DNA of 32,000 nucleotides from an uncultured Chloroflexia bacterium (GTDB lineage: Bacteria; Chloroflexota; Ktedonobacteria; Ktedonobacterales; JADMIN01). Positions 3,999 through 29,293 of the stretch are shown piece after piece; position 1 is the first letter of the stretch; every line of letters starts with the position of its first letter. Under the pieces are notes generated by a model that saw only the letters and a program-made list of their open reading frames with translations, was not told where the DNA came from and searched no databases. Both the position numbers and the translations under genes were made by a program. The stretch is taken from positions 30,001 to 62,000 of the forward strand of contig CAVRAI010000009.1 in the NCBI GenBank assembly GCA_963718915.1, given 5' to 3'.

Positions 3999-4073
3999 GC
4001 GGGAGTGGCTCAGGGGTAGAGCATCTCCTTGCCAAGGAGAAGGTCGCGGGTTCGAATCCCGTCTCCCGCTCCA
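3999..4073 (+). tRNA. tRNA-Gly (anticodon GCC), CCA encoded
   Basis: Cloverleaf folded by hand. Acceptor GCGGGAG/CTCCCGC, anticodon stem TCTCC/GGAGA with loop TTGCCAA, T arm GCGGG-TTCGAAT-CCCGT, discriminator T then CCA. Confidence 0.9.
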
Positions 4074-4077
4074 TCGC

Positions 4078-4148
4078 GGCGACGTCGCCAAGTGGTAAGG
4101 CAAGGGTCTGCAAAACCCTCATCACCGGTTCGAATCCGGTCGTCGCCT
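4078..4148 (+). tRNA. tRNA-Cys (anticodon GCA), no encoded CCA
   Basis: Acceptor GGCGACG/CGTCGCC, anticodon loop CTGCAAA, T arm CCGGTTCGAATCCGG. It starts 4 nt after tRNA-Gly, and the 3' flank reads CCG. Confidence 0.9.
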
Positions 4149-4186
4149 CCGAGCTATCGAGAAGAGTCGAGCAATCCACAGGAATT

Positions 4187-6277: not shown

Positions 6278-6520
6278 GTGTCGGGTCAGATACGAGATGG
6301 CTTCCTGACAGGTGCGGTCACAGGTCTCTTTGGATGGATATTGGCGATTATTATTGAAGATGTGTATCTTGACCTTTTTGTTTTTCAACAACCAGATGTA
6401 GCAGATTCGATTCGCCGCCAAATTTTGGAAGCGATAATTGTCGGTGTAATTGGATCCTGCATCGGCGCACTAGGTGGCGTGGTCAGTCGCAGACGCGCGA
6501 AGGCAAAGTCAAGGAAATAG
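6278..6520 (+). CDS. hypothetical small membrane protein (two predicted TM helices, basic tail)
   Basis: 80-aa ORF with FLTGAVTGLFGWILAIIIEDV and ILEAIIVGVIGSCIGALGGVV, then SRRRAKAKSRK. Codon usage is A/T-rich, unlike the host. The only start is a GTG overlapping the IS right tip, with an in-frame TGA just upstream in the reconstructed empty site. Confidence 0.3.
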   Translation: MSGQIRDGFLTGAVTGLFGWILAIIIEDVYLDLFVFQQPDVADSIRRQILEAIIVGVIGSCIGALGGVVSRRRAKAKSRK

Positions 6521-17336: not shown

Positions 17337-19361
17337 TTAACGCTTCCGCTGGCCGTCTTCGCCATCAGGGGGCGGCGGGCCGAAGCGTGGCAATTGTGGC
17401 GGCTGCCAGTTCTGTTGCTTGCGCCACTTCTGCGACTGCGCCAGATTCTCGTCGTACATCTCGCGCTCGGATGGGCCTTGCTCCTCCGGCGGCTCGCTAA
17501 AGCCCTGACGCTGATGGTCTGGCCGTTGCACGAACGGCGGACTCGCGAGGGGAGGCTCGTTATACGGCTGCTGCTGCGGCTCCTCATCAGGTGGCGGATA
17601 GGCGGATGGATAGTCAGGCGCGGGCGGATAGTTGGGGTGCTGGTTGGGCTGGCCAGCGGGTGGATAAATATCGCTGACCTCCCAGGCGTTGTCGGTGGGC
17701 GCTGCTGGCCGCGGGGGCTGATCGTGCGTCAGCCACCAGGGTGTCTCGGCGGGCGCGTTACCGCCAGCGGGCGGCATAAATGCTGGCCCGGCGGTGGGCG
17801 GCGGTACGAAGGGCGGCGTGGTCGGCACCGCCTCTGGATCGGACTGTCGTGGCCGCGCGGATGGGCCAGTGAAGATGTCCGAAGAACTCGACCCGGCCGT
17901 TACTTTGGGCATCTTGCTCGTATCCCAGAGCCACGAGTCGCCTTCTGGCCGATCATCTTCAACGGGAATGTATGCGGCCGCGGCGGCGACCGATGGCGGG
18001 ACATCCCCTGGGATGTTGGGCTGGTATGGGTTCATTGATGGGCGCGCGGCGCCAACGGACGGCTGTAGCTCCGTCGGATAGGCGTCGGGCGGAAGATTGC
18101 CCGCCAATCCGCCCGCCCAGGGGTCAAGTGGCCCGGAGTCAGAGCCGAAGCCGCCAGCCGCCACACCTCCAAAGGGCGCCCCCGTGCCCATCGTATTCGC
18201 GGCGCGCGCGCCGGGGCGACTTGAGACGGCTGGCGGTGGCATGACGCTCGGCTTAGATGGATTCTCGCCGCGCCGCCCAATGCGCTCGTAGTATTCGACC
18301 CAGGCCAGCATCTCATCAGGCCGGGTGAGGCGGTGCAGCCGAATGCGCACGTGGCGGCCCTCGCCGCGCAGCATCAGATACTCTGGAACGCGCGGCGACC
18401 AGGCGAAGCTCTTCACACGGCTATCGGTCCGGGCGGCAATTTCCATCAGCAGACGCCCGATTGCGATGCCAACGCGAATCAGCCCGCCTGCGGGATGGCG
18501 CGTGCGGTCAATGCGCGAGACGTTGGGCCAGCGCAGCCGCATCAGCGTTTGGGCCGGGCGCTTGCAGGTGATCTCTTTCGGCCCAACGGAATACGTCTGG
18601 CGACGGATAAATGAGAGCAGCGCCTCCAGACAGCAAAAGCCCGCCAGGCCCATGAGCACCAGTCCCGTAACGCCCGATTCAGGGAGCAGGATGGTGAAGT
18701 AGAGGCCAGGCAGCAGCGCCATCGCCGCGCCGAAGAGCCACCAGACGACGGTATTGGCGACGATGTCGGTCGCCGTGAATGGGCCGGAACCGCTCGCACC
18801 CCAGGTGCCGCCGTGGTCCCGCCAGAGGAGGTAGCGCTCGTAGACCTCGGCGCGGAAACGCGCGTAGTTCATCACCATATCTTCGCGCACGCGCAGCTCG
18901 CGCCCATCGCGCGCCATCACCACTACCCAGCGATAGCGCTGCCCACCGTCCGGCAGCGTGCGCTCGACGAGCCGCGCCGTATCGCGCCAGAACAGTTCCG
19001 TGCGCCAGGGTCCGCGCATCAGGCTGATGCCACGCGGGCCAACCAGCACACTCATCGAGAGCTTGAAGATATAGACCAGCGCGCCCCAATAGATAGAGAC
19101 CAGCAGCAGACCGAAGAAGACTGCGCGCCCGGTATGGTCATTGATGCCGAGGTGAAGCCAGTCATAGAGTCCAGTGCCGAGTAGGCCAAACGCCACTAAC
19201 CCCAGCAACATCCAGTCGCCGCCGCTGGGCGCGCGGAAGACGCTATCGCGCTCCTGAAATGCCAGATCCTCCAGCGCAACTGTGCGTCTCGGTTTTCGCG
19301 ATGTTTGCGATGTTTGCGATGATTGTGATGATTGTGAACTCGACACCACCGGCCCTGCCAC
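17337..19361 (-). CDS. membrane protein with two TM-hairpin/PH-like modules and a roughly 290-aa proline-rich C-terminal tail
   Basis: 674 aa. Two similar units (hydrophobic pair plus ...VGPRGISLMRGPWRTELFWRDTARL... and ...VGPKEITCKRPAQTLMRLRWPNVSRI...) resemble bacterial PH (YdbS/T-like) modules. The tail is rich in P/Y/Q/A. The N-terminus carries the QSS/QTS repeat. Confidence 0.75.
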   Translation of the reverse strand: MAGPVVSSSQSSQSSQTSQTSRKPRRTVALEDLAFQERDSVFRAPSGGDWMLLGLVAFGLLGTGLYDWLHLGINDHTGRAVFFGLLLVSIYWGALVYIFKLSMSVLVGPRGISLMRGPWRTELFWRDTARLVERTLPDGGQRYRWVVVMARDGRELRVREDMVMNYARFRAEVYERYLLWRDHGGTWGASGSGPFTATDIVANTVVWWLFGAAMALLPGLYFTILLPESGVTGLVLMGLAGFCCLEALLSFIRRQTYSVGPKEITCKRPAQTLMRLRWPNVSRIDRTRHPAGGLIRVGIAIGRLLMEIAARTDSRVKSFAWSPRVPEYLMLRGEGRHVRIRLHRLTRPDEMLAWVEYYERIGRRGENPSKPSVMPPPAVSSRPGARAANTMGTGAPFGGVAAGGFGSDSGPLDPWAGGLAGNLPPDAYPTELQPSVGAARPSMNPYQPNIPGDVPPSVAAAAAYIPVEDDRPEGDSWLWDTSKMPKVTAGSSSSDIFTGPSARPRQSDPEAVPTTPPFVPPPTAGPAFMPPAGGNAPAETPWWLTHDQPPRPAAPTDNAWEVSDIYPPAGQPNQHPNYPPAPDYPSAYPPPDEEPQQQPYNEPPLASPPFVQRPDHQRQGFSEPPEEQGPSEREMYDENLAQSQKWRKQQNWQPPQLPRFGPPPPDGEDGQRKR
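19295..19339. repeat. compound 9-bp tandem repeat (TT[T/C]GCGATG x3 then ATTGTGATG/ATTGTGAAC)
   Basis: Read directly. It encodes SSQSSQSSQTSQTS at the N-terminus of the 674-aa protein (minus strand). Confidence 0.9.
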
Positions 19362-27061: not shown

Positions 27062-27116
27062 CCCGCGCAGGCGGGCTTGGTGGCCGTAGGCCCATAGGCG
27101 CGGCTTCAGCCGCCAG
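27062..27116. repeat. nested-palindrome intergenic repeat, copy D (right half only)
   Basis: CCCGCGCAGGCGGGCTTGGTGGCCGTAGGCCCATAGGCGCGGCTTCAGCCGCCAGC aligns with the right halves of copies B and C. It overlaps the last codons and stop of the sigma-factor gene. Confidence 0.8.
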
Positions 27117-28035
27117 CGCCGTCGAGGATTGCCGGGTCGAGCTGACGAAGGCGCTCGGGATCGGCGATGAGGTCGATGGCGACGATCTTCCCGTGCGTCA
27201 TCGTGAAGCTGAAGATGACTCGTGGCTCGCCGTGCAACGCCCAGACGGCGCCGACGGATCCATGCATGAGCGCGACCTGAGCGACCCGCGCGCGTCCCGC
27301 GAACTGCCCGGCCACAGCCTCCGCGCCACGAACCTCGCCTGGCGCCCCAGTCTCCACTGCCGCACGGTCGGCGCGCAGCACGACATCGGGATCGAGCAGC
27401 GCCAGCAGCGCGTCGAAGTCGCCACCACGCGAGGCGGCGAGGAAGGCGTCGACCACGGCTCGCTGGCGGGTGAAATCGGCGTCGGGAAGTCGTGGCCGCG
27501 CCCTGAACCCGGCGACGCGCGCGGCTCGCAAGCTGCCTGGCCGCGGTCGGCGAGCGCCCCACGATGCCCGCGATCTCATCGAAGGGGACGGAGAACACAT
27601 CGTGCATCACAAACGCGAGCCGTTCGGCGGGGGTCAGCGTTTCGAGGACCACCAGCAGCGCCAGCCCAACCGAGTCGGCCAGGAGCGCCTCCTCTTCGGG
27701 GTTGATACCGCCCTCGCGGCTCAGGATTGGGTCGGAGAGGACTCACCATCCGCTCCGTCCGCGCTCAGTGGCTCTTCGCGTCGCGTCGCGCGCGAACGCA
27801 GCATGTCGAGGGAGACCCGCGCCACCACCGTCGTCAGCCATCCGCCGAGGTTCTCGATGCTGCTGGCGTCGGAACGGCTGAGGCGGAGCCAGGACTCCTG
27901 CACGGCGTCGTCCGCCTCGCTTGGCGAGCCGAGGAGCCGGTAGGCTACCGACCGCAGGTGGATCCGCTGCGCCTCGAATTGCTCCGCCAGCCATTCGCGT
28001 TCGTCTTTATCGTCTTTATCGTCGTGTTCGTCCAT
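27106..28035 (-). pseudogene. ECF sigma factor with C-terminal NTF2/SnoaL-like extension (ECF41/56-like), two frame breaks
   Basis: Region 2 (AVQESWLRLSR..ENLGGWLTTVVARVSLDMLR) is in the frame of 28035. Region 4 (LETLTPAERLAFVMHDVFSVPFDEIAGIVGRSPTAARQLASRARRRV) is in another frame. The NTF2-like tail (FTRQRAVVDAFLAASRGGDFDALLALLDPDVVLRAD...GKIVAIDLIADPERL) returns to the first frame. Breaks are near 27735-27750 and 27485-27500. Confidence 0.8.
28002..28023. repeat. 9-bp tandem duplication CGTCTTTAT x2 plus a partial copy
   Basis: Read directly. It encodes the DDKDDKD stretch in the sigma-factor N-terminus MDEHDDKDDKDEREW (minus strand). Confidence 0.9.
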
Positions 28036-28127
28036 CGGTCATCTTCCCTTCTTGTGGTCCGTCATTGGAGTGACGGATGGGACGCAACCGATGTGACAGG
28101 CCGACTTGAGGAACACGAGAGACAGCA

Positions 28128-28433
28128 TTATGCGCGCGGGCGGGAGCGTCTGCCACGTCCTCCAATATGCAGGATGCCACCGGCGGCTCCAATGCTGAGA
28201 ATACTGCCAGTGCTGCCAATTGACAGGATGCTTCCCGAACTGCCAATACTCAGGATACTCCCCACGCTGCCGATGCTGAGTGCGCTCCCCGCGCTGGCGA
28301 AACCCAGCATACTGATGACGCTGTAGAGACTCAGGATGCTCAGAAAGCTGCCACGGCTGTTGATACTTGCGCGGGAGGCCGACGATTGCCGCAATCCCTG
28401 CGTGAGCCTCTCCCTGACTGATACCGTTGCCAT
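28128..28433 (-). CDS. small Ser/Gly/Ile/Leu nonapeptide-repeat protein (101 aa), unknown function
   Basis: Seven 27-nt units: SILSLYSVI/SMLGFASAG/SALSIGSVG/SILSIGSSG/SILSIGSTG/SILSIGAAG/GILHIGG, then RGRRSRPRA. Units differ mostly at synonymous sites (Ser AGC/AGT/TCA/TCG, Leu CTG/CTC, Gly GGC/GGA/GGG), which supports this frame over the two overlapping ORFs. Confidence 0.65.
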   Translation of the reverse strand: MATVSVRERLTQGLRQSSASRASINSRGSFLSILSLYSVISMLGFASAGSALSIGSVGSILSIGSSGSILSIGSTGSILSIGAAGGILHIGGRGRRSRPRA

Positions 28434-28559
28434 TCCGCTGCCGTCCTTTCGTCATACCGTCGCGCTCGAAGCAACGTGATACGATGCACGCAGGCGCATA
28501 AAAAGACTATATCGCCATGTCCCAATGCCTGCCAGACTCGCACCAGCAGGAGGCGACCG

Positions 28560-29293
28560 ATGACCATGAGCGCGACCGACGATCTTGACCGGATCGACGA
28601 CCTGGATTGGTCGGTACGAACGGCAGTCTACGCATTCATCAGCGAACAGACGCGGCCTCCCACTGTTGACGAGGCGGCTGCGCTCCTCAGCATGACGCGC
28701 GAACGGGCCGCGCTGGCCTATCGGCGTCTCAACCAGCGCCACGCGCTCTTCCTGGAGCCTGGGACGCTCAGCATTCGCATGGCGCACCCATTCTCCGGCA
28801 TCCCGACGGCCTTCAAGGTACAGGCCAACGGACGCGCCTACTTCGCCAACTGCGCGTGGGATATGCTCGGGATCCCCGCCGCGCTCCACGCCGACGCCGA
28901 GATCGACGCCTACTACGCCGATGCCGCGCAATACTGCCGTGACGCTCAGCGTTCGCGGCGGCCAGGTCTACGGCCATGACGGCGGCACAGATGGCGTCAT
29001 CCACTTCCCGCTGCCCTTCCAGCACTGGTATGACGACCTGGTACGAACCTGAGCGAATATCCTGCTCTTCCGGTCGGAAGAGGATATCACTGCCTGGTGC
29101 GCAGCGCACTGGCCAGCCACGCGGCGAGACGCTGACGCTTGCCCAGACCTGGGAACTCTCGCAACGCTGGTATCACGACCGCCTGCGACCTGATTTTCGC
29201 GGACGCGCCCCAGACGAGGCGCAGCGGATATTTCAGCAGTTGGGGCTGACCTCGCCCGCGTGGTCGTTGAAACCCATGGACGAATCTTCTTGA
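28560..29293 (+). pseudogene. MerB-like (alkylmercury lyase family) gene with two +1 frame breaks and an in-frame TGA at the catalytic Cys column (pseudogene or candidate selenoprotein)
   Basis: AGGAGG RBS then ATG 28560. FANCAWDMLGIPAAL corresponds to MerB YAWCALDTLIFPAL (Cys96/Asp99). AVTLSVRGGQV corresponds to PVSLTVSPSEI. Frames run 0 -> 1 (about 28930) -> 2 (about 29103), with TGA at 29050. The C-terminus RTGQPRGETLTLAQTWELSQRWYHDRLRPDF... lies in the third frame. Confidence 0.8.
29050..29087 (+). promoter_or_regulatory. UGA plus SECIS-like stem-loop (candidate selenocysteine insertion element)
   Basis: TGA at 29050-52. Lower stem ATATC (29057-61) / GATAT (29083-87), 5' bulge CTG, upper stem CTCTTCC (29065-71) / GGAAGAG (29076-82), loop GGTC (29072-75), which is +23 to +26 from the U of UGA. 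As I recall it, the E. coli fdhF SECIS has a GGUC loop at +22 to +25. Confidence 0.35.

Follow-up and report, generated by a model that had tools for sequence, protein, structure and literature searches.

The 32,000-nt window analysed here, a stretch of genomic DNA from an uncultured Chloroflexia bacterium, carries a MerB-like gene at 28560–29293 on the forward strand that is interrupted by an in-frame TGA at 29050–29052 (all coordinates refer to the whole window, with position 1 as its first letter). The gene is a member of a large, vertically inherited family of Chloroflexota, in which the second metal-binding nucleophile of the organomercurial lyase MerB, Cys159, is very probably replaced by selenocysteine (Sec). 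The assignment of the gene is based on a Pfam MerB match and a full-length alignment with 80 genome loci. In the window it is spread over three frames, i.e. 28560 to ~28928, a middle part that contains the TGA, and a part that ends at 29291–29293. Removal of two 1-nt insertions restores an open reading frame (ORF) of 243 codons, preceded at a distance of 7 nt by a GGAGG ribosome-binding site and closed by a terminal TGA stop at 29291–29293. Within this ORF, TGA 29050–29052 lies in the frame used between ~28929 and ~29101 and is the sole internal stop. A preliminary description of the same DNA had reported this TGA, and its presence in frame was confirmed. The codon corresponds to residue 164 of the reconstructed product and is assigned as the putative UGA Sec codon on account of its conservation across the 80 loci and its alignment to MerB Cys159.

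The behaviour of this codon across species was followed in a scan that took one genome for each GTDB species and revealed at least 582 loci encoding a relative of the MerB-like protein. The best 80 of these make up the comparative set used below. Nearly all are labelled Chloroflexota, with Ktedonobacterales, Anaerolineales, Thermomicrobiales, Caldilineaceae and Ardenticatenaceae among the labels, besides others. Two Sec-form loci are located in bins labelled as something other than Chloroflexota, namely L011 (Rubrobacter sp.) and L074 (NC10), for which mis-binning or horizontal transfer is possible. The nearest relatives, L001 and L002, are Ktedonobacterales/Chloroflexia metagenome-assembled genomes (MAGs) with ~87–92% DNA identity to the window. 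At the column in question the codon is TGA in 78 of the 80 species-representative loci and TGC in the remaining two, with no instance of TAA or TAG. A single tblastn high-scoring segment pair crosses the column and extends to the C-terminus in all 80 loci, and the frame stays open for 72–93 codons beyond the TGA in each of the 78 Sec loci. The stretch downstream of the TGA displays a coding-like pattern, with entropies of 0.87, 0.66 and 1.43 bits for the first, second and third codon position and a mean pairwise amino-acid identity of 58%, and the other two frames hold 132 and 181 stops. Moreover, it is homologous to the C-terminus of both MerB and the Cys forms of the family, of which two occur among the 80 loci and two further ones are metagenomic. 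The residue preceding Sec is Thr in all 79 Sec forms, whereas the residue that follows is mostly, not always, Ala.

Taken across the family, the TGA is an ancestral character rather than a lesion. The opposite had been considered in the preliminary description, where the TGA was suspected to be a decay mutation, from TGC or TGT, in a dying pseudogene, and the hairpin that follows it a by-product of the codons for LFRSEE. The two frameshifts in the window gene and the position of the hairpin within conserved codons are in line with such an origin, but a TGA at the same column in 78 of 80 other species, in genes that are intact, is not. The codon usage of the hairpin, detailed below, is equally difficult to reconcile with decay, and we regard this explanation as exceedingly improbable; the suspicion is considered refuted for the codon as well as for the hairpin.

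Database annotation treats the same codon as a stop. A protein search with the MerB-like product gave 2172 relatives, 120 of them among the matches listed. Nearly all of the relatives among these listed matches are 150–165 amino acids long and end in WYDDL(V/I)xT, the last residue of which precedes the TGA of the window, and members of the family are annotated by NCBI and JGI as truncated, “organomercurial lyase” or “hypothetical” proteins. These gene calls would agree with a true stop, which would yield a truncated MerB-like protein of ~160 amino acids and leave the downstream part as a separate small gene or untranslated DNA. It could also be brought forward that TGA is an ordinary terminal stop in 27 of the 80 genes (TAA in 34 and TAG in 19). 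However, TGA makes up only 34% of these real stops, whereas all 78 genes out of 78 would have to use it if the column were a true stop. Downstream of the column the frame is in phase and open without exception, no separate start codon is present at the junction, and the encoded sequence has its homologue in the C-terminus of the Cys forms. The truncated product would also be devoid of the Cys159 equivalent and of ~50 residues of the MerB core, as alignment and model reach MerB residue ~204. A true stop is thus rated as very unlikely.

Three full-length database entries were found. Two of them have Cys at the column and the third, P0020 (L083 43–732, JGI 3300072176), has “W”. The DNA of this entry reads TGA followed by the conserved selenocysteine insertion sequence (SECIS), so the W stems from an alternative-code gene call in which TGA is translated as Trp. 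It represents a second type of mis-annotation beside truncation. In principle, the entry could be taken in favour of UGA being decoded, by read-through or reassignment, as one of the standard amino acids, Trp or Gly (compare genetic codes 4 and 25). Against this, 27 of the same 80 genes terminate in TGA, and TGA is therefore not reassigned in these genomes. Furthermore, homologues carry at this place a Cys that serves as catalytic metal ligand, and reassignment would leave unexplained a conserved hairpin with a G- and U-containing loop at SECIS distance. We give this possibility hardly any weight. The TGA at the catalytic Cys column, the ORF that continues beyond it and the hairpin together amount to the comparative signature that is standard for bacterial selenoprotein genes.

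The SECIS-like hairpin of the window occupies 29057–29087 on the forward strand. Folding gives a lower stem of 29057–29061 with 29083–29087, a 3-nt bulge at 29062–29064, and an apical minihelix, CUCUUCC-GGUC-GGAAGAG, at 29065–29082, in which a 7-bp stem (29065–29071 with 29076–29082) is capped by a GGUC loop at 29072–29075, i.e. +23 to +26 counted from the U of the UGA. This geometry, with its 5-bp lower stem, is as given in the preliminary description. The alignment of 79 Sec forms is gap-free for 48 nt from the UGA and places the start of a 6–7 bp helix 13–14 nt after this codon. Positions +16 to +32 are almost invariant and read CUCUUCC-(G/A)GUC-GGA(A/G)GA. The helix formed by positions 17–22 and 27–32 is paired in 98.2% of alignment cells. 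Within the loop, the first base is G in 56 and A in 23 of the 79 Sec forms, G24 and C26 are invariant, and U25 is conserved to 99%. The changes in the apical helix comprise 19 cases of U–A to U–G and one fully compensatory replacement of C–G by U–A, which is found in L004. At this locus (6439–6486) the pair C21–G28 has become U21–A28, the sole compensatory apical change in the family, and the peptide after the Sec codon, ANIQLFRSKEDADAH, is the most divergent one. For the lower stem, two registers were tried, with 43% and 66% of cells paired in a lineage-dependent manner; as the register varies by lineage, conservation is claimed for the apical helix only.

That this conservation concerns the RNA is indicated by the synonymous sites. 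The third codon positions +18, +21, +24 and +27 have entropies of 0–0.1 bit, as compared to 0.7–1.8 bits for the third positions of equally conserved residues elsewhere. Within the hairpin, Leu is encoded by CTC in 68 of 68 cases, Arg by CGG in 56 of 56, Ser by TCG in 78 of 78 and Phe by TTC in 78 of 79, while elsewhere in these genes the four codons account for 31%, 19%, 19% and 62% of their families, respectively. The complete fixation of CTC, CGG and TCG, against 19–31% elsewhere, and the variable third positions that other conserved residues retain argue against the hairpin being a by-product of its peptide. Four independent Cys forms (L064, L071, L084/L085 and L086) encode the same peptide, LLF(R/Q)(S/T)(D/E), with other codons that make the hairpin impossible. 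The hairpin is thus held constant by selection at the RNA level. We note that it is the comparative evidence, not the folding energy, that puts the hairpin far beyond chance. A scan of the window for other combinations of TGA, hairpin and (N)GU(N) loop returned nothing else that was convincing.

At the protein level, the reconstructed product scores 77.2 bits against the Pfam MerB family PF03243 (cut-off 27) and covers model positions 1–125 of 126. It remains far below the cut-offs of the canonical MerB equivalogs (NF033555 / PRK13239), with 23.1 bits versus 200 and 26.9 versus 193, and none of the NCBIfam models reaches its cut-off for this product. A profile of 21 full-length family members, in which Sec was entered as C, was searched against the PDB and matched MerB2 (5c17, E = 1.4e-19) as well as MerB (3f2g, 3fn8 and 1s6l, ~1e-10). 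The Sec column is matched to the first member of the C159–C160 pair of MerB, which in the C160S mutant 3f2g is the C of “FCS”. The by-eye placement of the TGA on the Cys159 column in the preliminary description agrees with the profile alignment to 5c17, 3f2g and 1s6l. Likewise, its equation of NCAWD with the catalytic pair Cys96/Asp99 holds: the ANCAWD motif is invariant (NCAWD at 28848–28862) and pairs with AWCALD of the structures, so that the codons for Cys98 (28851–28853) and Asp101 (28860–28862, both on the forward strand) fall on invariant columns that match MerB Cys96 and Asp99. An AlphaFold (AF2) model of the natural Cys-form homologue P0047, with a predicted local distance difference test (pLDDT) score of 89.6, matches only MerB and MerB2 structures at E < 1e-3, with template modelling (TM) scores of 0.55–0.74 over ~200 columns. 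The match includes the region encoded 3′ of the Sec codon. A product that stops at the TGA would therefore be short of one of the metal ligands and incomplete in its core.

By analogy with E. coli fdhF and its elongation factor SelB, the apical minihelix at 29065–29082 is presumed to be the SelB-binding element. SelB in complex with GTP and Sec-tRNA(Sec) would bind to the apical loop and deliver Sec to the ribosome paused at UGA-164, which would give rise to a full-length protein of ~225–245 amino acids instead of the annotated product of 150–165. In analogy to MerB chemistry, Cys98 and Sec164 may then ligate the metal of an organometal or organometalloid substrate, with Asp101 as the putative proton donor to the leaving carbon.

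As to the machinery that such a process would call for, SelD, SelA and SelB have been reported in Ktedonobacter racemifer, Anaerolinea thermophila and Caldilinea aerophila, and the same holds for Thermomicrobium roseum, Sphaerobacter thermophilus and Nitrolancetus hollandicus; each of these six cultured Chloroflexota is listed with 3–9 selenoproteins (Peng et al. 2016, PMC5029168, Tables S1/S2). These species belong to the same classes as the carriers of the MerB-like gene, which we count in favour of selenocysteine. ARAGORN found no tRNA-Sec in the window and 60 related loci, and tblastn with E. coli SelA, SelB and SelD found no sel gene in the window and the 80 loci. The single SelB-like tblastn match is translation initiation factor IF-2 and was rejected. 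The tRNA genes of the window are limited to an adjacent pair, tRNA-Gly(GCC) and tRNA-Cys(GCA), at 3999–4150 on the forward strand.

Several observations weigh against the assignment of a selenoprotein. (i) No selA, selB, selC or selD turned up in the window or in the flanks of related loci, which amount to ~800 kb. (ii) The hairpin by itself is thermodynamically unremarkable: the structure does fold in the way the preliminary description anticipated, but the single-sequence energy of the window hairpin is not significant, with z = −1.59 and 13 of 200 shuffles folding equally well. (iii) A comparison with Rfam, at both gathering and permissive thresholds, gave no SECIS match. (iv) The upper stem of the family lacks the bulged U of E. 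coli fdhF. The likeness to fdhF drawn in the preliminary description thus stands for the GGUC loop, which lies within 1 nt of the fdhF position, and fails for the bulge. (v) With two frameshifts, the gene may yield no protein in the source genome. (vi) For every member, the presence of selenium in the protein is a prediction from sequence comparison. These points are set against 78 TGA codons in 80 loci, an ORF that continues beyond them, and frozen synonymous sites, which together lend support to the reading, already put forward in the preliminary description, of a UGA in place of a nucleophilic Cys followed by a SECIS. The alignment of orthologs likewise provided what had been proposed there as a check, namely a Cys/TGA pair at the column (78 TGA, two TGC) and an apical helix that is kept, including one compensatory change.

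The state of the window copy is a separate matter. The two +1 frame breaks noted earlier are real in the sequence and correspond to 1-nt insertions at 28929 (GCCGCG[C]AATACT) and 29101 (TGGTGC[G]CAGCGC), both on the forward strand, the second of which adds a further +1 shift. The inserted C and G are private to the window in a DNA alignment with L001 and L002, and L003 lacks them as well. Programmed frameshifting was considered for both breaks and rejected, because the extra bases are missing from L001, L002 and L003. The frame breaks being window-specific, this copy may be non-functional or mis-assembled. Divergently oriented from the MerB-like gene lies a gene for an extracytoplasmic function (ECF)-type sigma factor (27106–28035, reverse strand; Sigma70_r2, Sigma70_r4_2 and SnoaL_2), and this gene is broken too. 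Its indels relative to L001 and L002 are +1 at 27489 and −1 at ~27740, as a result of which the region-2, region-4 and SnoaL-like parts are found in frames 0, 1 and 0.

For the window copy only, we consider two possibilities and rate them about equally likely: a recent pseudogene, possibly along with the neighbouring sigma gene, or an otherwise functional gene with a local error of assembly or consensus. All four frameshifting indels, two each in the sigma and MerB-like genes, fall within 27489–29101 (1.6 kb), and none is located in a homopolymer. The flanking genes are intact, including the adjoining GMC (glucose–methanol–choline) oxidoreductase gene of 2.1 kb, as are other ORFs of 1.4–2.2 kb; the integrity of these long neighbours implies that the indels are local and not a property of the assembly as a whole. 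What argues against a pseudogene is that no relaxed constraint was detected in the substitutions on the window lineage: 13 synonymous changes compare to 8 conservative non-synonymous ones, versus 22:12 in L001 and 22:15 in L002. TGA and SECIS are preserved, as is every catalytic codon, and clustered indels can also be the product of insufficient polishing in part of a long-contig MAG.

Apart from the ECF sigma factor and GMC oxidoreductase genes, the neighbours of the MerB-like gene in the window encode a Mur ligase and a hydrolase. A different arrangement prevails in 45 Anaerolineales loci (L005 4633–10459; e.g. L010, L014 and L019), where the MerB-like gene is situated directly downstream of 3-hydroxy-3-methylglutaryl-CoA (HMG-CoA) reductase. 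A condensing enzyme of the β-ketoacyl-ACP synthase III (KAS-III) type, which is probably HMG-CoA synthase, and a thiolase follow in ~22–31 of the 80 loci, and dnaA is found a few kb upstream in 25 loci. HMG-CoA reductase, thiolase and dnaA as neighbours suggest a housekeeping context, close to the origin and related to the mevalonate pathway, rather than metal resistance. In the window, and in the neighbour clusters conserved among the 80 loci, none of merA, merR, merT and merP is found beside the gene. The same clusters and the window contain no neighbours of the ABC (ATP-binding cassette) transporter or Sao type, a statement that refers to Pfam families and not to Sao hidden Markov models.

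Between the sigma and MerB-like genes, a small ORF at 28128–28433 (reverse strand) encodes Gly/Ser/Ile/Leu repeats in which GSILSIGS recurs ~5 times. An imperfect 27-nt tandem repeat lies at 28212–28271. The stretch is conserved in L003, with a gap-free alignment at 67% identity of the DNA, and no Pfam family matches it. Conceivably, the product is a partner of the ECF sigma factor that resides in the membrane or resembles an anti-sigma factor. Elsewhere in the window, an intact ORF of 674 amino acids (17337–19361, reverse strand) is without a Pfam family at E ≤ 0.001.

The preliminary description assumed that selenoproteins of the MerB family had not been described, and this is wrong. SaoL (NCBIfam NF040728) is a MerB-like organometallic lyase selenoprotein with Sec162 aligned to MerB Cys159 (Haft & Gwadz, 10.1101/2022.07.06.499078; J Bacteriol 2023). 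It features a C–U motif, is encoded in a nine-gene SAO locus and is confined to anaerobes, with anaerobic Firmicutes, Deltaproteobacteria and spirochaetes as the taxa named (10.1101/2022.07.06.499078). SaoL was recognised as a selenoprotein by 100% TGA, homology through U and Cys in homologues (10.1101/2022.07.06.499078), and by these criteria of Haft & Gwadz the Chloroflexota family qualifies as well. In addition, a selenoprotein family “Organic mercuric lyase MerB2” was counted in 17 sequenced bacteria (Peng et al. 2016, ISME J, Table S3) and is entered again in a later list (PMC7435645). SaoL appears in selenoproteome reviews of 2022 and 2026, in which the representative accession is SaoL with its CU motif. 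A literature search for a description of the Chloroflexota clade yielded only SaoL and the generic list entry. The latter denotes a MerB-type selenoprotein, as in the window family, and it names neither organisms nor a motif. As the organisms are unnamed in the older lists, members from Chloroflexota may have been detected before.

The Chloroflexota family is a distinct subfamily of already known MerB-type selenoproteins. With slightly less than even confidence, we propose that it is an undescribed, Chloroflexota-wide subfamily of MerB-like selenoenzymes with a T–U–A motif, for which there is no curated model, with an almost invariant SECIS and with occurrence in aerobic and anaerobic classes and in housekeeping contexts. 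If true, this would point to a core function in the handling of organometals, organometalloids or chalcogens other than classical mercury resistance. Irrespective of this proposal, the range of MerB-type selenoproteins is extended beyond the SAO system, which is restricted to anaerobes, to a whole phylum with high abundance in soil, sludge and groundwater. A systematic annotation error is corrected for at least 78 species representatives and some two thousand protein clusters, in which fragments of ~160 amino acids are annotated that are devoid of the catalytic selenocysteine and the C-terminal third. The natural Sec/Cys pair may serve as a handle on the contribution of selenium to the cleavage of carbon–metal bonds, and the simple, highly conserved SECIS as a handle on what SelB of Chloroflexota recognises. 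No new mechanism and no new class of element is revealed.

A comparison of the SECIS-like hairpin with that of E. coli fdhF shows both shared and differing traits. The G and U of the fdhF loop are contacted by SelB, and the corresponding bases are invariant or nearly so in the window family. In both cases the hairpin is positioned directly 3′ of the UGA, inside the coding region. In fdhF (NC_000913.3), the UGA is codon 140 and the GGUC loop spans +22 to +25; the GGUC tetraloop of the window is located one nt farther. Conversely, the sequence of the upper stem is unrelated to that of fdhF, 23 of the 79 members have an AGUC loop, and the lower stem depends on the lineage.

With regard to the protein, the family shares with MerB (R831b; 1s6l, 3f0o and 3f0p) and MerB2 (5c17) the conserved columns of the catalytic triad. 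It differs from them in the predicted Sec in place of Cys159, in the absence of the vicinal Cys160, and in that the gene looks chromosomal and lineage-wide instead of being borne on plasmids or transposons. A further counterpart is SaoL, with which the window family has in common the MerB fold (PF03243), Sec at the Cys159 column, the retained equivalents of Cys96 and Asp99, a location outside of mer operons and the typical truncation at the UGA in databases. In other respects the two differ. The window family carries T–U–A where SaoL has the C–U dipeptide, and ~72–80 residues follow Sec as compared to ~50 in SaoL. The reconstructed product reaches 38.9 bits against the NF040728 cut-off of 140. 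Moreover, the window family is found in Chloroflexota, including aerobic classes such as Ktedonobacteria and Thermomicrobia, and instead of the nine-gene SAO neighbourhood its genes are accompanied by ECF sigma factor and GMC oxidoreductase, or by HMG-CoA reductase, thiolase and dnaA.

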